Virus record (IMG/VR): IMGVR_UViG_3300030376_003142
Location: 1 to 47,025 of that record
DNA: 47,025 nt
Direction: 5' to 3' (one strand)
From: a virus
Lineage: Duplodnaviria > Caudoviricetes
Shown piece after piece: positions 11,200 to 47,025 of the stretch (positions within the stretch are counted from its first letter, which is position 1; every line of letters starts with the position of its first letter). The position numbers and the translations under genes were made by a program. The notes under the pieces were generated by a model. The model saw only the letters and a list, made by a program, of their open reading frames with translations, was not told the origin of the DNA and did not search any database.

Positions 11200-11201
11200 A
11201 C

Positions 11202-15195: not shown

Positions 15196-15230
15196 TACGC
15201 TATAATAGGAATTATATACGAAATCCTCAC

Positions 15231-15419: not shown

Positions 15420-15430
15420 TAGCAAAATCT

Positions 15431-15864: not shown

Positions 15865-15867
15865 ATA
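15860..15867 (+). promoter_or_regulatory. T4-type late promoter
   Basis: GCTAAATA about 32 nt upstream of the 1827-aa structural gene. Confidence 0.55.
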
Positions 15868-15899
15868 GGTTGAAGGAATGGTGTCAGGATTTATAGGTA

Positions 15900-21383: not shown

Positions 21384-21389
21384 TAAATA
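21382..21389 (+). promoter_or_regulatory. T4-type late promoter
   Basis: GATAAATA, followed by an AAGGAG ribosome-binding site before the ATG at 21415. Confidence 0.55.
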
Positions 21390-21414
21390 CACATACTAAG
21401 GAGTAATTTCGTAG

Positions 21415-24702: not shown

Positions 24703-24703
24703 A

Positions 24704-26944: not shown

Positions 26945-26949
26945 ATTCT

Positions 26950-31909: not shown

Positions 31910-32719
31910 ATGGCTCTATACGGTACAGGTTCTAACGTAAACCAAACTACCGATGTCAGTGCAGGTAATTACGGTAGTTCAACTGCAATTCCCGTAATCA
32001 CTGTTGATTCAGATAAAAGAATAAGTGCAATAAACACGACTTCAATTACTCTGGACGCATCCATCAACTCTAATGCGAGTGTTGGTGACGTTGGTACATA
32101 TGCGTTCTTGCAACAATCAGGAACAGAGAACTCAGCATCAAACGCTGGTTCAACCTTAGCAGGTTCTAGTTTAAGATACTCAGATGCTACTGGTAGATCC
32201 AGTGGTACACCTTCAGGTAACTGGAGATTGATGGGTTATGACTCTGGTGCTGCATTGGTCAACTCAGGATCAGGTTCTGGTTCAGGTTCTGGTTCAGGTA
32301 ACGTTACTGCTAACCCAAGTGGTAACTTGTCATTGAGTTCAGGTAATATTCAGGGTAACACCTCACTTGCTTCAGGTAACATCCATGGTAACTTGAGTGG
32401 TAACTTGAGTGGTGGTAACGTTCAAGGTAATACTAACGTAAACGTTGCAGGTAACATTCAAGGTGGTAAAGGTGGATCATATAACGTAAACCGAGGTGTT
32501 CCTACTGACCATTTGGGAGTTGGTGGTTCTGTAAACGTTGGTGGAGAAAACGTTGGTGTTGGTGGTAACGTTGCTACTGACCATTTGTCAGTTGCAGGTA
32601 ACATTCCAACAGATAACCTATCAATCAGTGGTACTGCTTCCGTAAACGTGACAGTGAACTCAGTTACAGTTAATACAACTGTGGCATACAGTTCATCTTT
32701 ATGGTTACGCTATTCATAA
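31910..32719 (+). CDS. Tail fibre tip/adhesin-like protein
   Basis: VGDVGTYAFL...AGSSLRYS...SGNWRLMG...SLWLRYS fibre-tip motif with a Gly/Asn-rich insert; N-terminal YGSSTAIPVITVD shared with the upstream fibre. Confidence 0.7.
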   Translation: MALYGTGSNVNQTTDVSAGNYGSSTAIPVITVDSDKRISAINTTSITLDASINSNASVGDVGTYAFLQQSGTENSASNAGSTLAGSSLRYSDATGRSSGTPSGNWRLMGYDSGAALVNSGSGSGSGSGSGNVTANPSGNLSLSSGNIQGNTSLASGNIHGNLSGNLSGGNVQGNTNVNVAGNIQGGKGGSYNVNRGVPTDHLGVGGSVNVGGENVGVGGNVATDHLSVAGNIPTDNLSISGTASVNVTVNSVTVNTTVAYSSSLWLRYS

Positions 32720-32734
32720 CGGAGGAAACAAACA

Positions 32735-33139
32735 ATGGCAACTAATTACGAAATCGCTGCTGCTAGGAATCCTAAGTGGGCAAATCCTGAGAAGAATATG
32801 ATCGACCTTGAGGTTGATTTTGCTCCTCTTGATGAACAGTGGTTACCATATACATGTTCACCAACTGATGTTGTAGAACATTCAAGAACATTATACACTA
32901 AGGCAGTCAACGGTGACTATGGCACTGTTGCTGACTATAATCATCATACATTATGGACACCATACTATACTGACTCAATCGAGGTATCGACTGAAGGTTT
33001 AGTACAGTTACTACTAGAGAAAGGTGTTATAACTGATGATGAAGTTGATGCTATTCTAATAGAGAAGACAGAACATGTTGGATATTATAGAACAACAACT
33101 GATGGTGTAGATAAGCAATGGGGTGGAGGAATGGCATAA
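32735..33139 (+). CDS. Tail fibre assembly chaperone-like protein
   Basis: ARNPKW......IDLEVDF......LPYTCSP.D..EHSR.LY..A..GDYG.VADY. Confidence 0.7.
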   Translation: MATNYEIAAARNPKWANPEKNMIDLEVDFAPLDEQWLPYTCSPTDVVEHSRTLYTKAVNGDYGTVADYNHHTLWTPYYTDSIEVSTEGLVQLLLEKGVITDDEVDAILIEKTEHVGYYRTTTDGVDKQWGGGMA

Positions 33140-33157
33140 AGCATCCTCTTCTTTATT

Positions 33158-34141
33158 ATGGCACAACAATCTGATAAATGGCATCACAGCATGTGTAGGT
33201 ATTTGGGGTTATCCTCAGATACCTCTTTTTTGTTTGGTATAATACCAGGAGTATGTCGAGAAGCTATTGGTCGTTATGACCACATGTACACTAAACGTGA
33301 ATGTTTCGATAGTGACAAGACTTATGTTTGGTCAGAACACCATGCTAACAAGATAAACAATGGAAGATTTAGTAATCAAACTGCTTATTACGGCACTTGT
33401 CCATTTTTGTGGGATCTCGGACGAGTCGCTTCCCAAGGAGTGTCTACTCCTGAGGGAAGTTTGTTCTTCTTACCAAGAGACGATCAAGTTACAATAAGAG
33501 AGGATGAATACGAGTCAGTCCAGCAGGTAATTGATGCAGCACCAGCACCAATTACATTTTTTCTTCCTTGGCGTTCGTGTGATATATGGAAGAACTGGGA
33601 TAAACTGAAATTACCTGCTGGTAGTAAGTTTATCCAGATGAATGATCCTGTAACAAGACAGTTTATATTATCAAAAGCATTCCTGGAGCACCAGCACATC
33701 TACATTCCTTGGCCAGGTACAGACATTTACTATGCAGAGTTTCTTAGTAAGACTGTGCATGTTTATGATAAGATAGAGCAGTATAGAACTAAGAAAAGAG
33801 ATGAGATGGAACGGGAGTCTTCCCTGGTCCTGAACTATTTGAAGTGGGGATATGATTATTTGAATGATAACCAGAAAGAGTTCTTTCGGTGGACTAGGGA
33901 CTGGATGCTTATAGGTGAAGATGTAAGACGTTATCTTACTATAAAAATGCTAGGACTTGATGTACTCAAGAGCCCAGCACAGTTATATGAAGATCTAATT
34001 GATAAAGGTTTTTTAGAATATAATCAAAAGTTCGTCTATGATCCTGAGTATCAACGTGCTTATGAGTGGTTAGTAACTAAGACTCAGGAAAAAAGTCCTT
34101 ATCGTTCACACCACGATCATCAACGTATATTGCTGCTCTAG
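33158..34141 (+). CDS. Hypothetical protein (possibly polysaccharide/glycosyltransferase related)
   Basis: 327-aa ORF converging on the sugar-metabolism genes; no motif firmly recognised. Confidence 0.6.
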   Translation: MAQQSDKWHHSMCRYLGLSSDTSFLFGIIPGVCREAIGRYDHMYTKRECFDSDKTYVWSEHHANKINNGRFSNQTAYYGTCPFLWDLGRVASQGVSTPEGSLFFLPRDDQVTIREDEYESVQQVIDAAPAPITFFLPWRSCDIWKNWDKLKLPAGSKFIQMNDPVTRQFILSKAFLEHQHIYIPWPGTDIYYAEFLSKTVHVYDKIEQYRTKKRDEMERESSLVLNYLKWGYDYLNDNQKEFFRWTRDWMLIGEDVRRYLTIKMLGLDVLKSPAQLYEDLIDKGFLEYNQKFVYDPEYQRAYEWLVTKTQEKSPYRSHHDHQRILLL

Positions 34142-34493
34142 GTTTACCAAAGAACAGAGCATGGTACTTCACACCCCATTTTTTCAGTTGTGCTTCTGTT
34201 CGTTCTCTACAATACTTATCTGCTTCGTTTTGTGCTGATGTTATATCATTTCCGTGCATTGCTGTGCTGCGAATGAATCCTCGTGCTGTTGCAAGGTATA
34301 TTGTAGCACCTTCATCGTATAACTCGTTTACATATTCTATACGTTTAGGTCTAGGAACTGCTTCCCATGGTGTACCTTCGTGTGGTTCAGTTAGTGTTCC
34401 ATCTATATCAATACAATAGATGTCCTTACGGTGTTCAGTGACATCATCATATTTTTCAACTAGAGGTGGAATTTTGTCTGTATTCGAGTTCAT
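34077..34493 (-). CDS. HAD-family phosphatase (capsule-biosynthesis type)
   Basis: YCIDIDGTL...TIYLATARG...T..QLKKWGVKYH.L.FGKP.A.IYVDD. Confidence 0.85.
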   Translation of the reverse strand: MNSNTDKIPPLVEKYDDVTEHRKDIYCIDIDGTLTEPHEGTPWEAVPRPKRIEYVNELYDEGATIYLATARGFIRSTAMHGNDITSAQNEADKYCRERTEAQLKKWGVKYHALFFGKPRAAIYVDDRGVNDKDFFPES

Positions 34494-34710
34494 TTTGAAG
34501 ATAGTGAATTGCTTTTTTTAGGTCAGCGATGTCGTCATCCTTATGACCTGCACGACAGACATATTTTACTACGTTGCCGAGATGGAAATCTAGTCCTTGA
34601 TCTCTTATGAAATCCCATACTTGTATCTTACCACGTTTATAATATTGTGGTCCGATGTCATTTGATGTTTTACTTCGTTTTGTTGGCAAGAGGTTCAGTG
34701 AGGTAGTCAT
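34456..34710 (-). CDS. DUF3310-like phage protein
   Basis: P.YY.RGKIQVWDFI..QGLDFHLGNVVKYVCRAGHK....DLKKA.HYL. Confidence 0.85.
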   Translation of the reverse strand: MTTSLNLLPTKRSKTSNDIGPQYYKRGKIQVWDFIRDQGLDFHLGNVVKYVCRAGHKDDDIADLKKAIHYLQNELEYRQNSTSS

Positions 34711-34942
34711 GGGTGTGATTGTTCATTCCAGTACAGGTACACGATTCAACTATCCTTTGAGGATTGTTGTTTCTAAATTGTGACTTATCACAATTAGGTG
34801 TGTACTTTGATATGTGACTCCATTCTGCATTGTATTTACATGCTCTGTAAATGACCTTCTCACAATGGAATCCATGGTCAGATACTTTATGAGCATGAAC
34901 TGGTATTGGTGTTAGTGCTAACACTAACAAGAGAAGTTTCAT
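34670..34942 (-). CDS. Hypothetical protein with signal-peptide-like N-terminus
   Basis: MKLLLLVLALTPIPVHA followed by a Cys/His-rich region; coupled to its neighbours. Confidence 0.5.
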   Translation of the reverse strand: MKLLLLVLALTPIPVHAHKVSDHGFHCEKVIYRACKYNAEWSHISKYTPNCDKSQFRNNNPQRIVESCTCTGMNNHTHDYLTEPLANKTK

Positions 34943-35391
34943 GGCAATTTGGGGAGTTCAACTCCATTATAGTGCATGAGCATATAGATTGTCCATAATG
35001 CTCGTATTTCAAATTCATGGTAATATTCGTCATCAATTACAATAGTAGGTAAATATTCGTCTTGACTTGGTGCTATAAGTAAAACCTTCGTGTTTATTTG
35101 TTCTAATACTTTTACTAGGTGTGAGTTCGTTCTGCATGTAATAGCAATAATAAGATCAGCAGTATGCTCGGCATAATCTATCCATGGTTCCTTCCAATCG
35201 TGGTCACCACCTAATGCTGTTAGGTTTACACTATCAGGTGCAAAGCAGAATTTATCAGTATGACGGTATATGTCACTTGCCATGTGTTGAGCAATAGCAA
35301 GATTACCACCAGTACCTATGAGTGCTATTTTGTTTGCTGCTGCAAACAATTTCACTCCTTCTTCAAATCCTATTGGTTCTGTAAAGACCAT
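34939..35391 (-). CDS. SIS-domain phosphosugar isomerase (GmhA-like)
   Basis: KIALIGTGGNLAIAQHMASD resembles GmhA GNGGSAADAQH; LTALGGD; DLIIAIT; HEFE. Confidence 0.7.
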   Translation of the reverse strand: MVFTEPIGFEEGVKLFAAANKIALIGTGGNLAIAQHMASDIYRHTDKFCFAPDSVNLTALGGDHDWKEPWIDYAEHTADLIIAITCRTNSHLVKVLEQINTKVLLIAPSQDEYLPTIVIDDEYYHEFEIRALWTIYMLMHYNGVELPKLP

Positions 35392-36080
35392 TCTACTTCT
35401 TTTATGTGATGCAGTCTATCAACTGCTCTTATTTTACCACACTTTAGATCGTATGGCATTACATCATATTTACCACAGAAACCTATTGTATCTAATCCCT
35501 TCCAATACTTTACAAATGTCATGTCAAGATTAGGAAAGTCTCTTATTGCTTTTATTGAGTACAAATACAATCCTAATTGAACAGTTATATTATTACATAT
35601 TACGTCAGGTTTACGTTGCATGTGAACAACCTTCCCATTATTTTCAATCATCTTCACTACATCATCATCCTCAATTTCACCATCCTCTAATTTTCTTGAA
35701 CTCTGCACCACATCATATTCATTGTCAATTCCATACTCAATCATTTGGTCTATCCACTCAGGTTTGGTGAGTGGTTCATCACCCTGTAAATTGAATATGT
35801 AATCTGATTTCATATATTGTGACACCTCTGCAACTCTATGAGTACAGGTGTAGTGTTCACTTGTGATGTATGCAGGGATACCATTAGAGTCTGCTAATTT
35901 AGCAATAGAATCATCTGGAGTGGCAACCATTACCATGTCAAGGTGTTTGGACTCTTTTGCTATATCAGCAACCCTAAGAACCATTTCTCGACCATTGATC
36001 TTAGCAAGAGGTTTGTTTGGAAACCTACTAGAAGACAATCTTGATGGAATGATACATGTGACAATTTTATTTTTGTACAT
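35370..36080 (-). CDS. kdsB: CMP-KDO synthetase-like cytidylyltransferase
   Basis: IIPSRLSSSRFPNKPLAKING..MV.RV...VATPD..I...T...H...T.RVAEV...NLQGDEP...VKM...GLYLY...AVD. Confidence 0.85.
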   Translation of the reverse strand: MYKNKIVTCIIPSRLSSSRFPNKPLAKINGREMVLRVADIAKESKHLDMVMVATPDDSIAKLADSNGIPAYITSEHYTCTHRVAEVSQYMKSDYIFNLQGDEPLTKPEWIDQMIEYGIDNEYDVVQSSRKLEDGEIEDDDVVKMIENNGKVVHMQRKPDVICNNITVQLGLYLYSIKAIRDFPNLDMTFVKYWKGLDTIGFCGKYDVMPYDLKCGKIRAVDRLHHIKEVEWSLQNQ

Positions 36081-36091
36081 ATCATAAATTA

Positions 36092-36111
36092 TGGTATAAT
36101 ATATTATAGCA
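36092..36111. promoter_or_regulatory. Overlapping divergent extended -10 promoters
   Basis: Palindrome TATAATATATTATA (36095-36108); TGGTATAAT on plus and TGCTATAAT on minus. Confidence 0.65.
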
Positions 36112-36623
36112 TGACCATTCTTTCAGACAAGAACACCAAAACTCTTTGGCACATGGCATTTACGATACCTGACATTGAGGAAGGTATCAGATGGTATTGT
36201 GACATATTAGGATGCTTGTTCTGTCAGAGGTTTGCTATAAATGTTGAGGATGGTAGTCACAACTTAGGATTTATATTCTCACTAGCAGGTCACCATATCA
36301 GTGTCTTGCAAGGAGAAACTTCAATCCCTCAACCTAACTCAAGGTTACCTAGACATAATGGTTTAGTATTCCTTGATAAGGAAGAGTATTTTGAAGTTGT
36401 GAACCATTGTATAAGTCATCAAGAGATCAATGTAATTGACTCTAAATACAATTTTCTAATCCCTAAAAAGATTAGACCAGAGGAAGCACACCTTCATGGA
36501 CAAAATGTAAGGTGTCATAGAACTACTATCAAAGATCCATGGGATAATTGGATAGAGTTCAAATACTACTCGTATCCTGATGAGATACATGCCCAGAAAC
36601 TAGATCAAATTAGGAGACACTGA
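36111..36623 (+). CDS. VOC/glyoxalase-family protein
   Basis: WHMAF.IPDIEEG.RWY.DILGC...F.L.GH...PRHNGLVF...GQ......IKDPWDNWIEFK. Confidence 0.8.
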   Translation: MTILSDKNTKTLWHMAFTIPDIEEGIRWYCDILGCLFCQRFAINVEDGSHNLGFIFSLAGHHISVLQGETSIPQPNSRLPRHNGLVFLDKEEYFEVVNHCISHQEINVIDSKYNFLIPKKIRPEEAHLHGQNVRCHRTTIKDPWDNWIEFKYYSYPDEIHAQKLDQIRRH

Positions 36624-37036
36624 TGCCTGTAACTCGACAACTTCCTGAGAATTATGGTAATGACTATAAAAGTCAATGGAAGGGTGGAGATTTCAAAGTT
36701 GGGGATCCTGTTGAATTTGGGTTTGGTGACCCTGACTATGGTATTATATCCTTTGAGTCAGGAGAACACATGACTGTGTGTACAGGTTGTGGAACTGGCA
36801 CAAGTGAACTTCCTCATAGGGATATAAATGTGGTAGTATCGTCAGTAGTGCCTGTAAGGAGATTAGAACCCCATGAATACACCAAATTGGATGCACAACT
36901 CAGGAAAGGATGCAAAGCGAACCTTGAAACCCCAAAAGTTGAGGCAAGCGAAGAAGGCAAGAAACATGTTTCTCACACGCTTGAAAAGAGAATCTCAGGA
37001 ATCCTCGACTACTCACCAGAAGTCAAAACATACTGA
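36623..37036 (+). CDS. Hypothetical protein (SH3-like N-terminal half)
   Basis: AGGAG ribosome-binding site; TGATG coupling; FKVGDPVEF...GIISF...MTVC. Confidence 0.55.
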   Translation: MPVTRQLPENYGNDYKSQWKGGDFKVGDPVEFGFGDPDYGIISFESGEHMTVCTGCGTGTSELPHRDINVVVSSVVPVRRLEPHEYTKLDAQLRKGCKANLETPKVEASEEGKKHVSHTLEKRISGILDYSPEVKTY

Positions 37037-37118
37037 CCAGTTGAATAAGTGGCACAATCGCTCTTCACAGGGCGATTTTTTTATGTATAATAAGGATATA
37101 CAAACGAGATTAGCATGA
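36873..37118 (+). CDS. Small basic cyanophage hypothetical protein overlapping the previous ORF
   Basis: AAGGAG upstream; MNTPNWMHNSGK..KR.LKPQ.LR.AK resembles a recurrent cyanophage small protein (from recall). Confidence 0.55.
   Translation: MNTPNWMHNSGKDAKRTLKPQKLRQAKKARNMFLTRLKRESQESSTTHQKSKHTDQLNKWHNRSSQGDFFMYNKDIQTRLA
37035..37091 (+). promoter_or_regulatory. Early-promoter element, copy 1
   Basis: GACCAGTTGAATAAGTGGCACA, hairpin AATCGCTC/GGGCGATT, TATAAT at 37086. Confidence 0.75.
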
Positions 37119-39295
37119 CAGTAAACATTGAGATCAAAGGTAACTTAGCAAGACTACTAGCAACAGAGAACCTTATTGTTGAGCATAAAAAGGTTGATAC
37201 TGCATCATTTGATGTAGAGCGTAGGGTTTTGGTTCTACCAATGTGGCAAGCGAGTAGGCATGTTTATGATATGTTAGTTGGTCACGAGGTTGGTCATGCA
37301 CTATACACACCTGCAAGAAATTGGAAGATAGAAGAAGAGTATAGTGAAGTGCCAATGGATTATGTAAATGTGGTTGAGGATGCTAGAATTGAGAGACTAA
37401 TGAAGAAGAAATTTGCAGGTTTGAATAAGGATTTCTTCAATGCTTATAGAGAATTGAATGATACTGATTTCTTTGAGTTGAAAGACGAGGATTATAATGC
37501 TTTCTCACTAATTGATAAGATCAATCTATACTTCAAGATAGGAACCTTCCTTGACCTTGATTTTGATGATGTTGAAAACGATATTATAACAGATATAACA
37601 AAAGCAGAGACATTTGAGGAAGTTTTACAACTATCTAAGAAACTATTTGAAATAGAAAAGCAGAGAAGAGAAGAGCAACAGCAACAGCAACAACAGCAAG
37701 AGGAAGAGTATAAGGCACCTGATCTAAAAGAGAGTGGTGGTGGTAATTCAGAGTCAGATGATGGTGAGGAAGAGGTACAGGGTAAAGGTACACCAAAAAC
37801 ACCTGATGAAATGACTGATGAGGAATTACTTGAGGAATTATCTGGTGGAACATCACCTTCAAGAGGAGATATTGAGCAATCATCCACTCAGAGATCATTT
37901 GATAGAAATGTTGAAGGATTGAATGATGATGAAGCAAGAGAACTCACATATATTACTATACCAGAGTTAGATTTAGATAAGGCAATCATTCCATTTGATG
38001 TAGTTCATAGGGTGTGTAATGAATACTATTCTCATAGGGATACAGAGCAAGAAGAAATAATGAATAATGATAATTCTCATTATTATGCTCATATTACTAA
38101 TGCTATTGAGAATAGTAAGCAATCATTCAAAGATTTCAAGAAATCATCTAATAAGGATGTAAATGCTCTAGTAAAAGAGTTTGAAATGAAGAAATCTGCT
38201 GATGGATATGCAAGAGCAACAACAGCAAGAACTGGTTCCTTAGATATGACTAAGTTGCATACTTACAAATACAATGAAGATGTATTCAAGAAAGTAACAA
38301 CTATTCCTGATAGTAAGAGTCATGGTTTAGTATTCATGCTTGACTGGTCTGGATCTATGCAGTATGAAATGATGAATACTATAAAGCAATTATATCAACT
38401 AATTTGGTTCTGTAGAAAAGTACAAATACCATTTGAAGTATATGCTTTTAGTGACTGTGCATGGCAAGTTGGTTTAGATCAAGACCCTGATGACTTCCAA
38501 AATTCAACTATTACTAAGAAGGGATGGGTAGATGGTGACTTTACATTTGATAAGACTTTTAGACTTATCAATCTATTCACTCATACATCAAAGACTAGAG
38601 AGTTTGATGAGCAACTATTGAATATCTGGAGACTGGTTGATTCATTCCAAAACTATTACATAGGTTGCCCCAGTGGTCTAAATTTATCAGGAACCCCACT
38701 AAATGAAGCAATCATAGCAAGTGGACAAGTAGTCAAGGCACTTACTAAAAGAACAGGAGTTCAAAAATGCCACTGTGTATTTCTTACTGATGGTGAGTCA
38801 AATTCACCTTCATATAATAGAATGAGAGGAGAATCTTATTTTGGTGAGAGTAAGCAAGGTCAGTGGTGCATCCCTTCTAATGCTATCATAAGAAAAGGAT
38901 CTCAAACTTTTGTATCTGAAGGTGGTCATAGAACTAACTTCACAACCAAATTGATTGAAGCAGTTAGGGCAGATATTCCTAGCAGTTCCTACATATCCTT
39001 TAGGTTACTTCAAAGAGGTGAACTAAGATCAATGTTCAACTGGTATGCACATGAAGCATTTGAGTCTGTTGATGATATGTCAAATGAAGTTAGGAAAAAT
39101 GGATGTGTATCCTTTTCAACTAAGGCATTTGATTGTTGGTTCGGAATACCAAACAACAACCTAAATGCAAATGATGAAATGGAAGTCAAAGAGGATGCTG
39201 CTAAACGTGACGTTGCTAAGGCATTTAGAAAGATGTTCAAGAGCAAGAAGCAAAATAAAATAATAACTAAGAAATTTGTTGAACTGGTGGCATAA
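37115..39295 (+). CDS. Zincin-motif plus VWA-domain protein (CobT-like partner of CobS)
   Basis: GHEVGHALYT and NVVEDARIE (HExxH); acidic linker; MIDAS DWSGSM...GTPL...FLTDGE. Confidence 0.88.
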   Translation: MTVNIEIKGNLARLLATENLIVEHKKVDTASFDVERRVLVLPMWQASRHVYDMLVGHEVGHALYTPARNWKIEEEYSEVPMDYVNVVEDARIERLMKKKFAGLNKDFFNAYRELNDTDFFELKDEDYNAFSLIDKINLYFKIGTFLDLDFDDVENDIITDITKAETFEEVLQLSKKLFEIEKQRREEQQQQQQQQEEEYKAPDLKESGGGNSESDDGEEEVQGKGTPKTPDEMTDEELLEELSGGTSPSRGDIEQSSTQRSFDRNVEGLNDDEARELTYITIPELDLDKAIIPFDVVHRVCNEYYSHRDTEQEEIMNNDNSHYYAHITNAIENSKQSFKDFKKSSNKDVNALVKEFEMKKSADGYARATTARTGSLDMTKLHTYKYNEDVFKKVTTIPDSKSHGLVFMLDWSGSMQYEMMNTIKQLYQLIWFCRKVQIPFEVYAFSDCAWQVGLDQDPDDFQNSTITKKGWVDGDFTFDKTFRLINLFTHTSKTREFDEQLLNIWRLVDSFQNYYIGCPSGLNLSGTPLNEAIIASGQVVKALTKRTGVQKCHCVFLTDGESNSPSYNRMRGESYFGESKQGQWCIPSNAIIRKGSQTFVSEGGHRTNFTTKLIEAVRADIPSSSYISFRLLQRGELRSMFNWYAHEAFESVDDMSNEVRKNGCVSFSTKAFDCWFGIPNNNLNANDEMEVKEDAAKRDVAKAFRKMFKSKKQNKIITKKFVELVA

Positions 39296-39305
39296 GCACC
39301 AGTTC
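39281..39305 (+). terminator. Hairpin spanning the stop codon and overlapping the promoter element
   Basis: GAACTGGTG-GCATAAG-CACCAGTTC, 9-bp stem; no U-tract. Confidence 0.35.
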
Positions 39306-39357
39306 ACAAAGTGGCACAAGATCACTTGAGTTTTCTTACCAAATCAACTATTATACT
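39297..39357 (+). promoter_or_regulatory. Early-promoter element, copy 2
   Basis: CACCAGTTCACAAAGTGGCACA, then TATTAT/TATACT at 39349-39357. Confidence 0.72.
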
Positions 39358-39379
39358 ATTATAACGAAAAGAGGAATTT

Positions 39380-40519
39380 ATGCCTAGAACCATTGACGGA
39401 TCAGTCCACATCAATAGATTGAAAGATTCTTATGGAGTCAACATTGATGCAGAGATCGTAAAAGAGTATTGTCAGAACCATGAAGAGATAGGTTACCAGA
39501 CACTTACTAAGTATCTGAACCAGTATAAAATCAAACGTGGTCATTGGAGATTGACTATGGATGAAATGGTCAAGGAGTCCAAACTATCACCAGATCAACT
39601 AAGGTCAGGAGAAAGACCACAGATTCAGTTTGTTCAGAAAGAAGAGCAAAATCTAGTTCCTTCTAAGGATGATACATTTGTTCCCTTTGGTGGATTTACT
39701 GATGTCAAGAAGGTTCTAAGATCTAACCAATTCTATCCTGTATTCATTACTGGACTATCTGGCAATGGTAAGACATTTGGAGTTGAGCAAGCATGTTCAC
39801 AACTAGGTAGAGAACTCATTAGAGTAAACATTACAGTTGAGACTGATGAGGATGATCTAATCGGTGGATTTAGATTAGTAAATGGTGAGACTGTTTGGCA
39901 TAATGGTCCAGTAATTGAAGCACTTGAAAGAGGATCTATCTTACTACTAGATGAAATTGATCTAGCAAGTAATAAGATATTATGCTTACAATCTATCCTT
40001 GAAGGTAAGGGAGTATTCCTCAAAAAGATAGGACAATTTGTTAGACCTAAGGATGGTTTCAATATTGTAGCAACTGCTAACACTAAAGGCAAGGGATCTG
40101 ATGATGGTAGATTCATAGGTACTAACGTATTGAATGAAGCATTTCTTGAAAGGTTCCCAATTACATTTGAACAGAACTATCCTTCACCAGTTACAGAGAA
40201 TAAGATCCTTAGAAAGATCTGCGATCAACTCAATATACCTATGACTGGTGACCATGAGAAATTCATTGTTCATCTAGTAGACTGGGCAGAAATAGTAAGA
40301 AAGACCTTCAATGAAGGTGGAATTGATGAGGTTATCTCAACTAGGAGATTAGTACACATCATAAGAGCATATTCAATATTTGGTGATAAACTCAAAGCGG
40401 TCAAAATATGCTTGAACCGATTTGATGATGAAACCAAAGAGTCATTCCTTCAATTATACACTAAGTTAGATGACTCAGTTGAGATAGATGCTCAAATCAC
40501 TCCAGAGGATGCTAAATAA
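39380..40519 (+). CDS. cobS: CobS-like MoxR AAA+ ATPase
   Basis: FITGLSGNGKT (Walker A), ETDEDDLIGG, LLLDEID (Walker B), ATANTKGKGSDDGRFIGTNVLNEAFLERF, ISTRRL. Confidence 0.93.
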   Translation: MPRTIDGSVHINRLKDSYGVNIDAEIVKEYCQNHEEIGYQTLTKYLNQYKIKRGHWRLTMDEMVKESKLSPDQLRSGERPQIQFVQKEEQNLVPSKDDTFVPFGGFTDVKKVLRSNQFYPVFITGLSGNGKTFGVEQACSQLGRELIRVNITVETDEDDLIGGFRLVNGETVWHNGPVIEALERGSILLLDEIDLASNKILCLQSILEGKGVFLKKIGQFVRPKDGFNIVATANTKGKGSDDGRFIGTNVLNEAFLERFPITFEQNYPSPVTENKILRKICDQLNIPMTGDHEKFIVHLVDWAEIVRKTFNEGGIDEVISTRRLVHIIRAYSIFGDKLKAVKICLNRFDDETKESFLQLYTKLDDSVEIDAQITPEDAK

Positions 40520-40542
40520 GTCTACTCTGGGTAGTTTGACCT

Positions 40543-40737
40543 ATGTTTGATTCTGCTACCGATTATAGTGACCTCATTGATGATAATGAGGTCTATTATA
40601 CCGAGAATGAATATAGGTTCAAAAAAAGGCAACTGGATCACCTCAGACTTGCAGATAAATTTTATCTGTGTGACAGTCTACAAAGTGTCACAAGAACCAT
40701 TTACATGAGGTCTGGATCTGTTATAATATGTTTATAG
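40543..40737 (+). CDS. Small hypothetical protein
   Basis: Preceded by GCTAAATA (40511); its 3' half overlaps promoter element copy 3. Confidence 0.35.
   Translation: MFDSATDYSDLIDDNEVYYTENEYRFKKRQLDHLRLADKFYLCDSLQSVTRTIYMRSGSVIICL
40669..40727 (+). promoter_or_regulatory. Early-promoter element, copy 3 (upstream of the structured RNA)
   Basis: TGTGACAGTCTACAAAGTGTCACA; TTTACA -35-like box; TGT-TATAAT at 40722. Confidence 0.8.
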
Positions 40738-41180
40738 GCAGAAAAGGATGCCGATCCCTGAGACTGAGTTAGTACCTGTAATTAGACTCATAATGAGTTA
40801 GGATCAGGTGAAGCACCTCTTGACCAGTCAGACATCTCGGATCAGTTTCGTAAGACCTATAGTTTCAAGGGATATGTGGTTCTACTGCCCCAAACCTTCT
40901 AACTACCCTGACATAGAAGCAGGGATATGATGTTAGAAGAAACCTATTACTGCACAGTCAGATGGTTGAAAGTGGTGGGGGTTCAGGTGTAAGCGATTCC
41001 CAGTAGGTAAATTTGGGCATATAGGTGAAACCTTGCAGATGCCCCACTCCCTTGAAACTCCCCAATTATGAACGAGGAAAGGCGAATGTGCCTCGTAGGT
41101 CGCAACTACTAAAAGACATCCAGATCTAATTCAACTCCTGTCGTATGAGTATAAACTAGGCATGTTCCCTTACATAATGT
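40735..41180 (+). ncRNA. Large structured non-coding RNA candidate or structured leader
   Basis: About 450 nt with no ORF in the track, GC-enriched, many stems, including the perfect 12-bp AGTTTCAAGGGA (40861-72)/TCCCTTGAAACT (41048-59), CTTCTAAC/GTTAGAAG, CCCTG/CAGGG, GGGCAT/ATGCCC around an AGGT-GAA-ACCT hairpin, ACGAGG/CCTCGT and AGGTG/CACCT. Confidence 0.7.
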
Positions 41181-41190
41181 AATCACCACT

Positions 41191-41415
41191 ATGGCAAAAA
41201 TCCAAGGATCTAGTGCTATCGCTGCTGTCAACTTTGGCGAGAATAATGCAGTTGAGGTGCAATTCCAAGGCAATGAAAAACTTTATGGTTTTGTTGCAAA
41301 GGATTCATCACAACTTCGCAATGACTTACAGTCAACTCTCGAAAGAAATGAGTCTGTAGGAAGTCTCATTGCAGGTTATCGCAGAAGTGGTAAACTAAAT
41401 GCAGTTGAAGCATAG
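41191..41415 (+). CDS. Small KTSC-like protein
   Basis: SSAIAAVNF...VEVQF.G.EKLYGF...ESVGSLI resembles the KTSC pattern SS.I..V.Y....L.V.F..G..Y.Y...S.G. Confidence 0.6.
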   Translation: MAKIQGSSAIAAVNFGENNAVEVQFQGNEKLYGFVAKDSSQLRNDLQSTLERNESVGSLIAGYRRSGKLNAVEA

Positions 41416-41463
41416 ACTTTGAACTGACTGAAAAATTGAATACTTATTGAAACACATTTCTTT

Positions 41464-41494
41464 GACCCCGATTGAGTCGGGGTCTTCTACTTTC
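41464..41494 (+). terminator. Rho-independent terminator candidate
   Basis: GACCCCGA-TTGAG-TCGGGGTC followed by TTCTACTTTC. Confidence 0.6.
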
Positions 41495-41501
41495 TATTAT
41501 T

Positions 41502-41804
41502 ATGTCATGTTTAGATTATTCAACTGTTTGGGAAGTAATGAATGATCTTGACGAGATTGTTCAAAAGACTAAACAGATTGAAACAATGTCCAGAGACTTA
41601 CTTGATGAGTTATCTGAAGCAACAGAGAACCCTACAATTTTAGATGCTGCTGATCTATTGAGATTATACAGTCATCATATTTTAGGTGAACTAGAAAATG
41701 CTCAAATAAGAGCATGGAATGAAACAGTTGTAAAACTGAGATCAAGTGATACTAAGACTACCAAACATGGGAAGGATTTAGATGTGCTTGATGCCAGTTT
41801 ATAA
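41502..41804 (+). CDS. Hypothetical helical protein
   Basis: ORF 41472..41804 in the track; the ATG at 41502, after the hairpin, is the likelier start. Confidence 0.65.
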   Translation: MSCLDYSTVWEVMNDLDEIVQKTKQIETMSRDLLDELSEATENPTILDAADLLRLYSHHILGELENAQIRAWNETVVKLRSSDTKTTKHGKDLDVLDASL

Positions 41805-41848
41805 ACTGGTACACTATAACCCCATTGTTCACTCAATGGGGTTATTAT
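41792..41848 (+). promoter_or_regulatory. Early-promoter element, copy 4, with a 12-bp stem-loop; upstream of the R-M operon
   Basis: TGCCAGTTTATAAACTGGTACA; ATAACCCCATTG/CAATGGGGTTAT (41816-41845); TATTAT at 41843. Confidence 0.75.
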
Positions 41849-41874
41849 AGTATTATAAACAAACGAGTTTTATT

Positions 41875-42426
41875 ATGTCCACTAATCAAATACTTGCAGA
41901 GCATGTAGAAAATTACATCACCCATGATGATGCAATACATGGTAGACTTGAAGATCCCTATGCAGACTCACCCTTCAAGATCTATAGGGAAATGAGTTCA
42001 AAGACCAAAGGAAAGTATTTTGAAGCATTTGTTGAAGAGTATTGTGAGAATTTAGGATGGAAGGTTGAGAGAGCAAAGAAAACCACTGAATATGATAGAG
42101 TAGTCAACAATTATAAGGTTGAGGTAAAAGGATCTACTGTATGGTCAGGTAGTAAACCACATTTTAGATGGCAACAAATCAGACCAGAGCATTGTTATGA
42201 TATAATGGTATTTGTTGCAGTATATCCTGATAGAATGGAGTTCTATTCATGTACTAAGGAAGAGATCGTGGATTATGTTACTAACCAAAATTGGTTGAAT
42301 CAGCATGGTGGTAAGACTAAGAACAGTGGCACATTTTTTATTGATGGTTTCCCTGAGGACTTCCCATTTTTCAAAACATTATTCACTCACTTAGAAGGAT
42401 TCAAAGGAACTAGGAATGAAGAGTAA
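41875..42426 (+). CDS. Type II restriction endonuclease, MseI-like PD-(D/E)XK
   Basis: EDPYADSPF...SKTKG..FE...YDRVVNNYKVEVKGSTVW...FRWQQIR...YD...NQHGG; PD-(D/E)XK core (D..EVK); matches recalled R.MseI motifs; adjacent to an MTase. Confidence 0.75.
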   Translation: MSTNQILAEHVENYITHDDAIHGRLEDPYADSPFKIYREMSSKTKGKYFEAFVEEYCENLGWKVERAKKTTEYDRVVNNYKVEVKGSTVWSGSKPHFRWQQIRPEHCYDIMVFVAVYPDRMEFYSCTKEEIVDYVTNQNWLNQHGGKTKNSGTFFIDGFPEDFPFFKTLFTHLEGFKGTRNEE

Positions 42427-43192
42427 ATTTGTAAATAAAGACTGTCTTGCTTTTCTAAAGACAGTCAAGGACAACTCAGTGGATCTAGTTTTGACTGATC
42501 CACCATATAATATATCATTTGATGGTGGCAAGGGTTGGGATAGTCAATGGAAGAGTGAGAGAGACTATCTAAAATGGTGTGATACATGGACTAAGGAATT
42601 AGTTAGAGTTCTCAAACCTAATCGTATGATGATAGTCTGGGGTACTCTCAAGACTGATACATTTATAAAGTATAAACTCTTGTTGGGTTTATACGATCAG
42701 TTAGTATCTCAGAATGAGATAGTATGGTCATACAACTGGGGTGGTCGTGCCAAGAATAATTTTGCTCGTAAGCATGAATACGCATGGTGTTACTCTAAGG
42801 GTGATGATTTCTTATTCAATGATGATGACATCAGAATTGAACGTAAACTCAAAAAGAATATAAGAACAGGCAAGGACTACACTCAGGGAACTATACCTAC
42901 TTGCGTCTGGGAGATCAATAATCATACTACCAGTAAGGACTATATTGGATGGCATCCTACTACTAAGAACCTTGAGGTATTAGAAAGAATGATTAGAGCA
43001 TATTCTAATGAGGGTGATGTAGTCCTTGATATTTTTATGGGTAGTGGATCTACTGGAGTAGCATGTAATCGTACTCGTAGGATATACTTAGGATGTGAGA
43101 AGTCTCGTGAATATTATCGTAAAGCAAAGGAGAGAATAGCAAATGATCGTGACAGTTTAGAAAGTGTCCCTAATTTGCTTACAGAACTCTAA
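42416..43192 (+). CDS. Beta-class amino-methyltransferase (m6A/m4C)
   Basis: DLVLTDPPY (motif IV) N-terminal to HPT.K...SNEGDVVLDIFMGSGSTG (motif I); overlaps the nuclease gene by 11 nt. Confidence 0.93.
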   Translation: MKSKFVNKDCLAFLKTVKDNSVDLVLTDPPYNISFDGGKGWDSQWKSERDYLKWCDTWTKELVRVLKPNRMMIVWGTLKTDTFIKYKLLLGLYDQLVSQNEIVWSYNWGGRAKNNFARKHEYAWCYSKGDDFLFNDDDIRIERKLKKNIRTGKDYTQGTIPTCVWEINNHTTSKDYIGWHPTTKNLEVLERMIRAYSNEGDVVLDIFMGSGSTGVACNRTRRIYLGCEKSREYYRKAKERIANDRDSLESVPNLLTEL

Positions 43193-43205
43193 TTCGTGGT
43201 ATTAT
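43149..43205 (+). promoter_or_regulatory. Early-promoter element, copy 5 (inside the MTase 3' end)
   Basis: GTGACAGTTTAGAAAGTGTCCCT; TGG-TATTAT at 43200. Confidence 0.65.
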
Positions 43206-43235
43206 ATAAGAGTAGACAACAGAGGACTTTTATTC

Positions 43236-43451
43236 GTGCCTAAAAAAGCAAAAAAACATGATGAATCCCTCGTCTACTTCGAGTCCAAACATCATGTGAT
43301 CGAGATCTCTCAAGGTGATCTCAATGATGTTCTCAAATTCTGTGAACAGAATCACATTGACCCAGATTACTATTGCTTTGAGTTTATGACCTTTGATGAT
43401 GGTGGATCTGAGTTATATGCTGAGGACTATGAAGAAAATTTGGAGTTCTAA
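43236..43451 (+). CDS. Small early hypothetical protein
   Basis: AGAGGA ribosome-binding site then GTG CCT AAA; ...FCEQNHIDPDYYCFEFM motif; the track start at 43164 lies inside the promoter. Confidence 0.6.
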   Translation: MPKKAKKHDESLVYFESKHHVIEISQGDLNDVLKFCEQNHIDPDYYCFEFMTFDDGGSELYAEDYEENLEF

Positions 43452-43456
43452 TCGTT

Positions 43457-43594
43457 ATGAGAAAGTTTACAGTTTCAGCACTCGTGGAAGGTTATAGAAT
43501 TGATGAAGAAGTTACAGCAGTAAGTATTCATCATGCTATCAAACTTCTCAAAGCAAAGTATTCAAATGCGAGGAATGTTTATGTCAAAAATTGA
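43457..43594 (+). CDS. Small early hypothetical protein (45 aa, not in the track)
   Basis: GGAG upstream; MRKFTVSALVEGYRIDEEVTAVSIHHAIKLLKAKYSNARNVYVKN*. Confidence 0.6.
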   Translation: MRKFTVSALVEGYRIDEEVTAVSIHHAIKLLKAKYSNARNVYVKN

Positions 43595-43790
43595 TAACAA
43601 AGGGTTACCAGATAACCTTCAATTCTTATCACAAATCTTTGAAGAATGGACTTCTAAAGAACATTTACCATTGATGTGTGCATCTGATTTGTTACACTCT
43701 CAACCACAGATTGAACTTGTTGATTATCAACGAGCATGGTTACGCAAGTTCATTGAATTGTGGGATTTCGTCAACCAAAATGACATTTAG
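43581..43790 (+). CDS. Small early hypothetical protein
   Basis: GAGG ribosome-binding site before the ATG at 43581; ...LMCASDLL...QRAWLRKFIELWD. Confidence 0.65.
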   Translation: MSKIDNKGLPDNLQFLSQIFEEWTSKEHLPLMCASDLLHSQPQIELVDYQRAWLRKFIELWDFVNQNDI

Positions 43791-43792
43791 TT

Positions 43793-43978
43793 ATGAAATT
43801 ATTCGTTCCTGAGAAACAATTAGTGAACAGATATACAAGAGCAGGTATTCATGGGAAATGGATAGTTTGCCCTCGTTGTTCACAATCAACCAGAGTATTT
43901 CATTTTAGTTGGAGTGCATTGACTTGTCAATCTTGCCAACAAAGTATAAACAAAGCGGAGTGGATTTGCTATGACTAA
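43793..43978 (+). CDS. Small Zn-ribbon protein
   Basis: RYTRAG..GKWIVCPRC....VFHFSWSALTCQSC; two CxxC motifs. Confidence 0.75.
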   Translation: MKLFVPEKQLVNRYTRAGIHGKWIVCPRCSQSTRVFHFSWSALTCQSCQQSINKAEWICYD

Positions 43979-44150
43979 GTTACAAACATTTCATGTATTG
44001 TGTGAAGAAACTACTTATTTTACAGTAGAAGTTGAAGCACAAAATGAAGATGAAGCAAGGGAACTTGTTCATGCTGATGTAAACTCACATGAGGTAATTA
44101 GTGAGTCAGTTAGTGAATGGAATATAGATGAAGTTAGGAGGGTTTTATAA
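43971..44150 (+). CDS. Small acidic protein (DpnD/PcfM-like VEVEA.NEDEA motif; 59 aa, not in the track)
   Basis: MTKLQTFHVLCEETTYFTVEVEAQNEDEARELV...; GGAG upstream. Confidence 0.6.
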   Translation: MTKLQTFHVLCEETTYFTVEVEAQNEDEARELVHADVNSHEVISESVSEWNIDEVRRVL

Positions 44151-44242
44151 CATTATAATTATGGTCTTAGTATTATTTTGGTCGTACAATCTGTTCGCAC
44201 TAAGTGTGTTCATTTATCTCAAACTTACGGAGGAAAAGTAAC

Positions 44243-44572
44243 ATGAATTACTCACAAACTGCAAACCCTAATGCAACAAATAGTGAGTTAGATGCAAAGC
44301 AAATAGTATATAATAACTTTGAAAATTCAACTCATAAAGTATCATTGACTGGCAATCAAATCTCTACAATACTTTATGTTTTAGAAGGGTATATTCAAGG
44401 ATCTGATGAATATCATTTCAATGATGATTTCACTAGGGATGTTGATAAGATCTTTGAAGAATTAGAGTCAACAACTGATAACTATTATAACGTGAATAAG
44501 TGTATAATAGAGGGTAATGATTATGCTGACTGTGTTGATAGTTTAGTAAACAAAATGGAGGTGACTAAATGA
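44243..44572 (+). CDS. Early hypothetical protein
   Basis: GGAGG ribosome-binding site before ATG AAT TAC; MNYSQTANPNATNSELDAK... Confidence 0.65.
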   Translation: MNYSQTANPNATNSELDAKQIVYNNFENSTHKVSLTGNQISTILYVLEGYIQGSDEYHFNDDFTRDVDKIFEELESTTDNYYNVNKCIIEGNDYADCVDSLVNKMEVTK

Positions 44573-44700
44573 AACTTAGTGCAAAAAGTACAAAAGCAGA
44601 GTTATTATCTAAACTCAAAGATTTGGATGAATTAGAACAACAAAGATCCATATTAGTGTGGTTATGTGTTATTTTATTTGTTCACGCTATGATATTATAA
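44569..44700 (+). CDS. Small protein with C-terminal transmembrane helix (43 aa, not in the track)
   Basis: GGAGG ribosome-binding site, ATGA coupling; MKLSAKSTKAELL...ILVWLCVILFVHAMIL*. Confidence 0.6.
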   Translation: MKLSAKSTKAELLSKLKDLDELEQQRSILVWLCVILFVHAMIL

Positions 44701-44705
44701 TATAG

Positions 44706-44767
44706 TGTGACAGTCAAATTAGTGGCACATAGATCCCCCATTAGGGGGATTTTTCATGTATTATAAT
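44706..44767 (+). promoter_or_regulatory. Early-promoter element, copy 6
   Basis: TGTGACAGTCAAATTAGTGGCACA; hairpin ATCCCCC/GGGGGAT plus T-tract; TATTATAAT at 44759. Confidence 0.78.
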
Positions 44768-44790
44768 AATATAACCAAAGGAGTTCTATT

Positions 44791-44955
44791 ATGTTTGTTG
44801 TATTCAGTTCACCAATTCAGTTCACCAAAAGTTATAACAAAGCATGTCAAATTGCAGATGCTCATTATAACAAAACAGGTGAAATTGTAGCGGTTGAAAG
44901 TGTTACAAACCACACTCCATTTCATGTTCCTTCAGTATCACTAATAGGTGCATAA
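44791..44955 (+). CDS. Small early hypothetical protein (54 aa, not in the track)
   Basis: AAGGAG ribosome-binding site; MFVVFSSPIQFTKSYNKACQIADAHYNKTGEIVAVESV... Confidence 0.6.
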   Translation: MFVVFSSPIQFTKSYNKACQIADAHYNKTGEIVAVESVTNHTPFHVPSVSLIGA

Positions 44956-44956
44956 T

Positions 44957-45205
44957 ATGAAACTATTAGTAACAAGAATTGAGTTTGATGTACCTGAAGA
45001 AGATGAGTATCAATTCGGGTCACTTGATGGTGCTATTTGTTATCAAAAGCAACAACAGTTAGACTCACAAACTGCTGCAATTTGCATCTGGGATGTTGAT
45101 AGTTATTCAGCACTAATTCCAAAGATTGAAAGAACAATTGGTTTCAAAGTATTAGATCTTGATTATACAGCAAATCTAATACATCCACTAACAAGTTATC
45201 TCTAA
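44957..45205 (+). CDS. Small early hypothetical protein
   Basis: MKLLVTRIEFD...IWDVD....LI.KI...GF.V...Y. Confidence 0.65.
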   Translation: MKLLVTRIEFDVPEEDEYQFGSLDGAICYQKQQQLDSQTAAICIWDVDSYSALIPKIERTIGFKVLDLDYTANLIHPLTSYL

Positions 45206-45220
45206 AGGAGGACAATTATC

Positions 45221-45448
45221 ATGTATTCAAGTGACACTTTTGGTAGAATCTTCTGGGTTGATGATAACCTAGATTTCAAATCATGCCCACTATGTGTAGA
45301 TGGGACTGGTGATTTTGATGTTGAAGATTATGTATCAGACTGGCAAGATTGGGAGGGAGTTGATATGAGTTTGCTCTTCCAAATACACAAAACTTGTTTA
45401 CATCTAAAGCAAGATCATGCTAACTCAGTATCACTTATAGGATTATAA
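45221..45448 (+). CDS. Small early hypothetical protein
   Basis: AGGAGG ribosome-binding site; FGRIFWVDD...FKSCPL.VDGTGDF. Confidence 0.7.
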   Translation: MYSSDTFGRIFWVDDNLDFKSCPLCVDGTGDFDVEDYVSDWQDWEGVDMSLLFQIHKTCLHLKQDHANSVSLIGL

Positions 45449-45669
45449 TGTCATCACTCAAATTATACACTACTGGACGTATTATTGGATCATTCTTGAT
45501 AGTAACTGCTTACTATGTTGTATTACATGTAAGCAGTTATATTGGTTCAATAATGTATCTAACTGCAAATGCAATTAGTCTCCCATTCTTTATAAGAACT
45601 AAGGGTTATGATGTGGTTATAATGTTATCATTTCTTATGGTAATATCACTTAGCAAAATTATTACATAG
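45448..45669 (+). CDS. Small three-TM membrane protein
   Basis: RIIGS.L...AY.VVLHV...G.......AISLPFFIRTK.YDVV.M..FL; hydrophobic. Confidence 0.7.
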   Translation: MSSLKLYTTGRIIGSFLIVTAYYVVLHVSSYIGSIMYLTANAISLPFFIRTKGYDVVIMLSFLMVISLSKIIT

Positions 45670-45672
45670 TGA

Positions 45673-45731
45673 GTGACAGTCTATAAACTGGCACAAGAAC
45701 CCTTTCAATTTGCCCCATTTGTGCCTATAAT
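45673..45731 (+). promoter_or_regulatory. Early-promoter element, copy 7
   Basis: GTGACAGTCTATAAACTGGCACA; TATAAT at 45726. Confidence 0.78.
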
Positions 45732-45756
45732 GAGTATAACGAATTAGAAAACAACT

Positions 45757-45960
45757 ATGAACGAATTTTTATATACAATCGAGACTCCATCCAACTTCGA
45801 GGATGGATCAATCGAAATCAATGACCTAGACAAGGCAAATGACCTTTGTTTTGACTTATCTTTAGAGCATGGATATTCATGTGTAAGATGTAACATAAGC
45901 GGTGAGATTGTCGCTGATTATGGTGATGTAATGCCACTAATTGAGGAGGGTATAGTATAA
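45757..45960 (+). CDS. Small early hypothetical protein
   Basis: DLDKANDLCFDLSLEHGYSCVR...GEIVADYG. Confidence 0.7.
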   Translation: MNEFLYTIETPSNFEDGSIEINDLDKANDLCFDLSLEHGYSCVRCNISGEIVADYGDVMPLIEEGIV

Positions 45961-46142
45961 TGAGTTGCCTACAAAATGAATCAATTCTTGAGAACATCTA
46001 TGATGAAGTTTGGGAAGAATATAGAAAGAATAACAATCTAACTTCAGATCAATTATATACATTAGAGCAGAATTCTCCTACTGGTGTTATACAATCAATA
46101 GAAGATGAAACTAATAAAAGATTTGAAGATCTTTGCCAATAA
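45960..46142 (+). CDS. Small early hypothetical protein
   Basis: GAGG ribosome-binding site, TAATG coupling; MSCLQNE.ILENIYDEV...KRFEDLCQ. Confidence 0.7.
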   Translation: MSCLQNESILENIYDEVWEEYRKNNNLTSDQLYTLEQNSPTGVIQSIEDETNKRFEDLCQ

Positions 46143-46178
46143 AGTATTACTAACTGTTCTTTCACTAACTAACAATCA

Positions 46179-46307
46179 ATGCCACAACTTACAAGAACTT
46201 ATATAATATCAAAGAATGGTATTATCAGGATGAAAGAAACATCCAAGGATAATAAATCATCAACTGAAAGTATTATCAAACCTTGGAGAACTCTCAATAA
46301 TTACTAA
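46179..46307 (+). CDS. Small hypothetical protein (42 aa, not in the track)
   Basis: MPQLTRTYIISKNGIIRMKE...KPWRTLNNY*; fills the gap between neighbours. Confidence 0.45.
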   Translation: MPQLTRTYIISKNGIIRMKETSKDNKSSTESIIKPWRTLNNY

Positions 46308-46309
46308 CA

Positions 46310-46576
46310 ATGAAACTATTCAAATCAGATGCTCCAAAGTATAAAGAATTGAATAAACCTTCACTCTATTGGAAGATACTTAGGAGACCACCTTTTGTTA
46401 GACTAACAACAATTAGAGAAGAATTGTCAAGAGTAAGTAACAACAACTGGGAGGAAATCAAAGTGGATTTAGATAAGTTTCACAAGAGATTAGCATCACA
46501 TAATATAAACAAATATCAACTGAGTTTAGATCTATTCCCAGTTGATCCCCACCCTAGAGGGGCAAAGCGGTCATAA
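46310..46576 (+). CDS. Small hypothetical protein
   Basis: GGAG upstream; 88-aa ORF ending just before promoter element copy 8. Confidence 0.6.
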   Translation: MKLFKSDAPKYKELNKPSLYWKILRRPPFVRLTTIREELSRVSNNNWEEIKVDLDKFHKRLASHNINKYQLSLDLFPVDPHPRGAKRS

Positions 46577-46586
46577 GGGTGTTCTG

Positions 46587-46645
46587 TGTGACAGTCGTCA
46601 AAGTGTCCACATTTCCCCCTATTACCCCTGATAACCCCTTATAAT
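46587..46645 (+). promoter_or_regulatory. Early-promoter element, copy 8
   Basis: TGTGACAGTCGTCAAAGTGTCCAC; TATAAT at 46640. Confidence 0.75.
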
Positions 46646-46676
46646 AGAAGAGTAAACAACCAAAGGAATCATTCAA

Positions 46677-46910
46677 ATGAATCTTAGACCAATCGCAGCA
46701 AATCAGACCGAAGTTTCTTTCCCTAACGGAACCGAGGTCTTTTTTAGTTACAAAACACCAGTTGCAGGTTATGACTCCATAACTGGTAAATTCTTCAGAA
46801 CTCGTGTAAAGTATTCAGTTACAACGACTCGTCATATCAACAAGTGGTTAGATGGCAGGGTTGCACAAGAAGTAGATCAGAAAATCATAGACAATCTTGT
46901 AGGGGGTTGA
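46677..46910 (+). CDS. Conserved small phage early protein
   Basis: AAGGA ribosome-binding site; NQTEV....G.EVFFSYKTPVA......F.T..KYS.TT.RHINKWL. Confidence 0.75.
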   Translation: MNLRPIAANQTEVSFPNGTEVFFSYKTPVAGYDSITGKFFRTRVKYSVTTTRHINKWLDGRVAQEVDQKIIDNLVGG

Positions 46911-46955
46911 ACCCATTTCTTTACAACAATCGTTCACAATCTACAAATCTAACTA

Positions 46956-47025
46956 ATGACTACAATGACAAATCACATCTACAAAAATAACATTGATCGT
47001 GAAATATTAGAGGATACATTGTTTA
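46956..47025 (+). CDS. Hypothetical protein, 3' truncated by the window
   Basis: MTTMTNHIYKNNIDREILEDTLF... is open to the end of the window. Confidence 0.4.
   Translation, partial: MTTMTNHIYKNNIDREILEDTLF

Follow-up and report, generated by a model that had tools for sequence, protein, structure and literature searches.

The window, meaning the whole 47-kb stretch of DNA analyzed here (47,025 nucleotides), is a piece of a T4-like cyanomyovirus in which baseplate and tail genes are followed by cobT-cobS and then by small ORFs. Its cobS is nearest to those of AG-345-D19 (70%) and cyanophages, and a psbA motif is present in the syntenic relatives G001 and G005. The cobT-cobS genes (37115-40519, with a poly-Q repeat in cobT near 37648-37715) adjoin the early small-ORF region in the clade of the window and lie ~85-100 kb from the early region in P-SSM7, S-SSM4, and S-ShM2. 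Beyond them, a nuclease ORF (41875-42426) and a methyltransferase (MTase) ORF (42416-43192) follow one another on the + strand. Upstream of both, also on the + strand, is an imperfect palindrome of 22 nt (41791-41812), repeated 5' of likely early transcription units, and then an 8-bp hairpin (41820-41841) and a -10-like hexamer (the two together spanning 41820-41851) that begins 30 nt past the palindrome, as in other copies. The initial annotation had placed a nuclease-first, overlapping nuclease-MTase pair behind a repeated element, and inspection confirmed both ORFs, an 11-nt overlap, and the element.

Other strong copies of the element lie at 39296, 40670, 43149, 44707, 45673, and 46588, with a weaker one at 37034. 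In a strict scan all seven strong copies fell within 39296-46609, leaving 1-39 kb empty, a result that is circular within the window because the consensus was derived from the window's own copies. The element also clusters in P-SSM7 and S-SSM4, and the copy upstream of the nuclease-MTase pair is a putative cyanomyovirus early promoter. A first promoter pattern search in the window gave a single match (chance, 0.86), and a generic sigma-70 scan of the window stayed at chance level (49 vs 46.5). Contigs from RNA runs span the nuclease and the start of the MTase, coverage for which DNA carry-over could account. A 9-nt deletion at 42408, near the nuclease C-terminus and just 5' of the overlap, is present in three runs, one of DNA and two of RNA. 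An ORF-free stretch at 40765-41130, deeply covered in RNA-run contigs, is possibly a phage non-coding RNA: G008 and P-SSM5 contain two pieces of it with their order exchanged, its folding z is -1.25, and neither it nor the rest of 36000-47025 has an Rfam match.

The first ORF is predicted to encode a 183-residue type II restriction-type nuclease of the PD-(D/E)XK class, with TTAA as its predicted target. It matches PADLOC REase_II PDLC03515 (E 3e-18) and PHROG 6927 (E 4e-25; T4-GC 685), and E50, D74, E83, K85, Q100-Q101-R103, and Q143-H-G-G are invariant across 39 homologs, so that the catalytic E50, D74, E83, and K85 are intact. A structure model (pLDDT 89.5) aligns with PD-(D/E)XK folds, the top match being the homing endonuclease I-Ssp6803I (Z 12.2, rmsd 3.2, 122 aligned), followed by NhoI (Z 10.3), Hjc (Z 8.5), and PvuII (Z 7.0); with I-Ssp6803I, NhoI, and Hjc it has only the fold in common, at 13-18% identity. 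No sequence match was found in plasmids, PDB sequences, NCBIfam, or Pfam, nor in genome contigs searched with the phage nuclease alignment.

Among phages, 24 records match the nuclease and 13 of these belong to its close subfamily, while cobS occurs in 461 records. The T4-GC 685/PHROG 6927 genes of S-ShM2, S-RIM14, S-SSM2, and S-BM3 are homologous to it, with 33% identity. In the S-BM3 record the gene is already labelled 'restriction endonuclease', and none of the four records gives a target. A distant subfamily, with other recognition segments and without TTAA depletion, is found in P-SSM7 (37440-37976), S-SSM4 (18296-18829), ACG-2014f US44 (36918-37454), and contig L181 (14221-14772), the last of which bears a member of each subfamily, both paired with an MTase of their own. 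Since this distant subfamily shows no TTAA loss in P-SSM7, S-SSM4, and ACG-2014f, the family as a whole does not share a single target. Some nuclease forms (P0006, P0008, P0010, P0122, and G009 15432-16265) are extended at the N-terminus by ~100 residues that belong to no known family.

The second ORF encodes a beta-class amino-MTase of 258 residues, the predicted cognate TTAA m6A methylase. It matches Pfam N6_N4_Mtase (E 4e-49), and its intact motifs stand in beta order, with DPPY at 28-31 and FMGSG at 207-211. The DPPY motif is compatible with m6A and leaves the position of the modified base undefined. In many relatives (L155-L157, L159, L161, L205, and L209) a second beta-class MTase of ~325 residues with an SPPY motif, likely making m4C, lies directly 3' of the TTAA MTase.

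How regularly do the two genes travel together? Among 44 IMG/VR nuclease loci, many of them near-duplicates, a DPPY MTase adjoins the nuclease in 29 and a degenerate one in 4, while 5 lack an adjacent MTase and 6 are truncated. In bacteria, homologs of the PDLC03515 type have a beta MTase adjacent, upstream, in 76 of 80 loci, which argues for a type II restriction-modification (R-M) family; taken together, the viral and bacterial linkage suggests that the phage genes behave like a type II R-M pair. The phage and bacterial nucleases are alike in being small PD-(D/E)XK enzymes with the same motif string and a beta-class MTase partner. They differ in that the phage nuclease shares only 29% identity over 140 residues with the best family member, matches of the phage MTases to the bacterial partners reach only 50-100 bits, the bacterial order is M before R and the phage order R before M, and there are phage lineages with a dead or undetected MTase. 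We presume PDLC03515 to be the MseI (T^TAA) family, whose nuclease cuts between the two T and whose MTase places m6A on the last A. The R.MseI motifs on which the initial annotation had relied do match the consensus of the bacterial family; no sequence named MseI was among the matches, and PDLC03515 bears no specificity label. On these motifs, the designation 'MseI-like' is plausible for the phage nuclease. In the bacterial flanks TTAA stands at 0.83 of expectation and is not more depleted there than other palindromes. Few sequenced phages have a complete R-M system, one survey having counted 9 in 831 genomes (PMC4176335).

If the nuclease cuts TTAA, the genomes that carry it offer a natural experiment. 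We counted TTAA in 14 phage records, 12 further contigs, and the window, and assigned the close nuclease subfamily with our own HMM over the 14 phage records (Syn1 lies outside this set). In the window, TTAA is the most depleted 4-mer (106 observed vs 305 expected), as it is in most long nuclease loci of the window's clade. All ten records with the nuclease and an intact MTase have TTAA at 0.14-0.63 of expectation: the window 0.35, G005 0.20, G006 0.44, G008 0.31, G009 0.47, G010 0.21, G013 0.63, G015 0.53, G016 0.51, and S-BM3 0.14, the MTase of S-BM3 being unlinked, ~82 kb from the nuclease. Where the MTase is dead or undetected, over 40-180 kb of surveyed sequence in each of four relatives, TTAA has gone entirely or nearly so: 0 of 590 expected sites in the complete genome of the cultured phage S-ShM2 (179,563 bp; no beta MTase match), 0/323 in G004, 0/96 in G011, and 2/219 in G007. 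An MTase may have been missed in G007 and G011, since these records are only 40% and 31% complete. DPPY and a portion of the middle region are missing from the dead MTases of the G004 type, and the four degenerate loci of this type are close kin that we count as about one event. By contrast, in all 12 records without the close subfamily, three of which have the distant one, TTAA stands at 0.83-1.05. TTAA loss thus tracks the close nuclease subfamily, and it is complete or almost complete in the records with a dead or undetected MTase. In the nuclease tree, MTase-positive rows separate the zero-TTAA lineages into at least three positions; the placement of two further ones is unresolved.

Because relatives with the nuclease and without a working MTase have purged TTAA almost or entirely, the nuclease very probably recognizes TTAA. 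One locus counts against this reading: L186 has the nuclease and only a distant MTase nearby, yet retains 29 of 68 TTAA sites. The genomic pattern thus lends support to the type II R-M pair with a TTAA target that the initial annotation had put forward. Its further proposal, that methylation guards the phage DNA, is incomplete; the phage has also shed the site, totally so in its early region, and some relatives seem to rely on removal alone. The graded series, from partial loss with an empty early zone (intact MTase) to total loss (dead MTase), portrays a restriction enzyme reshaping the genome that carries it.

The R-M slot itself appears to be a swappable cassette, since AG-345-D19 has the same gene order with a third type of ORF in the slot (L150:5471-6178, no family match) and no TTAA depletion (65 TTAA in the matching 9 kb; overall ratio 1.05). 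G001 has the same MTase with a different nuclease-like ORF, a TTAA ratio of 0.29, and a TTAA-free zone of 14 kb. This ORF (L240:12026-12667) belongs to a second, unrelated nuclease-like family of ~180-213 residues with no Pfam, PHROG, or PADLOC match, found also in L196, L200, L205-L208, and L220 directly 5' of the same MTase family; it is possibly another TTAA cutter.

The loss is unevenly distributed along the genome. The last TTAA of the window lies at 32670, and the remaining 14,352 bp contain none against 85 expected, whereas TTAA stands at 0.48 of expectation in the window outside this zone. The TTAA-free zone (32674-47025) is at least 14.35 kb long, runs past the window end, and spans cobT-cobS and the R-M pair together with small ORFs that are likely early. 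Synonymous-codon shuffles of 18 zone ORFs gave 54.1 +/- 5.3 TTAA against 0 observed. Seven MTase-positive records have an 8.7-16-kb block with no TTAA or, in G009, a single one. The block begins at cobT or up to ~4 kb before it and covers the R-M slot, and at the density outside the block the chance of such a gap is at most 2e-5 in each of the seven. In the relative L002 the zone measures ~16 kb, and the SPPY MTase lies just beyond its right edge. G013, G015, and G016 have the nuclease-MTase pair and no zone. Inheritance from one site-free ancestor is unlikely, the cobT genes of zone carriers being only 44-46% identical to that of the window. The zone might instead mark a terminal repeat or the genome end that is injected first. 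Contig depth, which is not copy number, is flat over 27-47 kb in long contigs from 4 DNA runs of 2 studies; in S-PM2d, a region with 2-3-fold depth has been described (PMC4503421). Our best guess is that the zone stems from leaky or late methylation in the DNA that is read or copied first, and such an empty zone may reveal how early phage DNA is exposed.

We propose that the locus encodes a phage type II R-M pair with TTAA as its predicted target, probably expressed early so as to cleave the chromosome of the host, and host cutting appears to be its likeliest purpose; we put the probability of this reading at roughly 0.58. Host RNA polymerase would transcribe the operon during the opening minutes, the nuclease ahead of the MTase. 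The nuclease would cut double-stranded DNA at unmethylated TTAA, where the MTase would write m6A. The main victim would be the host chromosome, with shut-off and a supply of nucleotides as the outcome. The phage has purged every TTAA from its likely early region, and the sites left elsewhere are likely methylated; conceivably, methylation is so leaky or late that the early-read region tolerates no site. At random, TTAA is expected once per ~70-95 bp at 31-36% GC and once per 300-570 bp at 52-59% GC. Cyanomyoviruses have been described as lacking denA, denB, and ndd, with the route of host DNA degradation left open (PMC2984593), and in one account the DNA of cyanophage hosts breaks down within hours (PMC7852597). 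The nuclease is not a general or the only route of this degradation, because it is patchily distributed, in 24 records compared with the 461 that have cobS, and Syn9, a host-DNA degrader, has no nuclease match.

The main rival keeps the same TTAA chemistry and holds that the selected target is competing DNA, that is, co-infecting phages, satellites, and mobile elements, with host cutting as a side effect. The patchy distribution and the exchange of nucleases at a single slot, where three unrelated types of ORF occur, would fit an arms race, most cyanomyoviruses retain 500-2250 TTAA sites, and marseillevirus R-M systems, which spare host DNA, have been read as anti-competitor weapons (PMC7253447). 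The host chromosome, however, is always present, and a genome-wide TTAA purge is a costly price for an occasional benefit. Co-infection is also likely rarer than single infection. We consider this explanation unlikely, if the most serious of those opposed to host cutting.

Quite improbable, in our judgment, is a selfish R-M cassette that enforces its own retention in recombining phages, site loss being the escape of the phage. The same MTase family does occur with different nucleases, alone, and in non-cyanophage contexts, as such a cassette might; but lineages without MTase function have kept an intact nuclease after a full purge of sites, when addiction no longer binds. Slighter still is the prospect that a host restriction enzyme drives TTAA loss, with the phage MTase as an anti-restriction device and the nuclease as a passenger. 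Phages commonly evade restriction by avoiding the recognition site (PMC6286503), and cyanophage MTases are usually read as anti-restriction shields (PMC12801897). The loss nevertheless tracks the phage nuclease and not the host, S-BM3 (host WH7803) standing at 0.14 and the ACG-2014f Syn7803 isolates at 0.83-0.84, and the close relative AG-345-D19 is undepleted. Equally faint is the case for a junction resolvase, a homing-type PD-(D/E)XK enzyme, or a cutter of another word, which has the best fold matches (I-Ssp6803I, NhoI, and Hjc) in its favor and against it the sharing of fold alone, the sequence evidence for an R-M family, and the standing of TTAA as the most depleted 4-mer.

Host cutting by a virus-encoded R-M pair has parallels. 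Chloroviruses use R-M systems to degrade host DNA, and chloroviruses and marseilleviruses resemble the phage in encoding a nuclease and an MTase that are used offensively; in melbournevirus the nuclease is expressed first, and the phage gene order is likewise nuclease first (PMC7253447). These viruses differ in their eukaryotic hosts and other targets (GATC), with no site-free zone among the features for which this source was used, and chlorovirus nucleases are packaged in virions (PMC7253447). The proposed job also resembles that of DenA, DenB, and Ndd of T4, namely early breakdown of host DNA with phage DNA spared. T4 spares its own DNA by hydroxymethyl-cytosine; here, phage DNA would be spared by site loss and site methylation. 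The first-step-transfer region of T5 and the early region of T7 are devoid of restriction sites under pressure from host enzymes with ordered injection. As in the cyanophages, a recognition word is missing from an early region with definite limits; the difference is that the cyanophage zone follows a phage gene. In sum, the nuclease-MTase pair is known chemistry in an unusual place with a strong natural experiment. The nuclease family supplies a gene with a name and a predicted target of four bases, and S-ShM2 grown on WH8102 provides a system in culture. Among open-licence full texts we found no paper on TTAA systems, TTAA or RGCY avoidance, or site-free zones in cyanophages.

A tentative and rather doubtful generalization is that T4-like marine cyanophages have exchanged the base modification of T4 for exchangeable four-base cutters, with which they destroy host DNA, and protect themselves by site deletion, genome-wide without a methylase and in a bounded early zone with one. 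If true, the words absent from a phage genome would foretell which nucleases it carries, and an RGCY-free early zone and the words at zero genome-wide in other cyanomyoviruses (CCGG, GCGC, and TCGA) would be footprints of further nucleases.

The window contains such an RGCY-free zone (no AGCT, AGCC, GGCT, or GGCC) at 33975-47025, which coincides with the TTAA zone and is not tied to the nuclease. RGCY-free blocks of 9-32 kb occur in S-ShM2 (34632-53988), P-SSM7 (24662-46543), S-WAM1 (19034-51358), S-SSM4 (8202-27551), S-RIM2, Syn9, P-HM1, P-SSM5, and AG-345-D19, mostly without a TTAA system, and in many cyanomyoviruses they overlie the likely early region whether or not a TTAA system is present. 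S-CAM9, S-BM3, and HTVC008M have no such block, and ACG-2014f has only a 7.6-kb gap elsewhere. The SPPY MTase is not supported as the cause, the motif search having missed it in the zone-bearing S-ShM2, S-WAM1, and S-RIM2. In genomes that have cobT-cobS at a distance from the early region, these genes are nonetheless depleted of RGCY (19 observed vs 46.6 in 8 cultured genomes), and the same count in G013, S-CAM9, and two ACG-2014f records gives 87 vs 98.1; the sums leave out S-BM3, HTVC008M, and records with the cob genes inside the zone. This reduction leans toward a link with early transcription over one with injection order, and base composition contributes to it, because TTAA is about halved in the cob genes of phages without a TTAA system.

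Other words are missing as well. CCGG is at or near zero genome-wide in most cyanomyoviruses, as are GCGC and CGCG in P-SSM7 and P-SSM5. S-SSM4 has 0 of 330 expected TCGA and 0 of 54 TTTAAA, and nine palindromic 6-mers are at or near zero in S-ShM2. Syn9 has 258 of 1317 expected GAAC, and S-RIM2 has 242 of 787 AATT.
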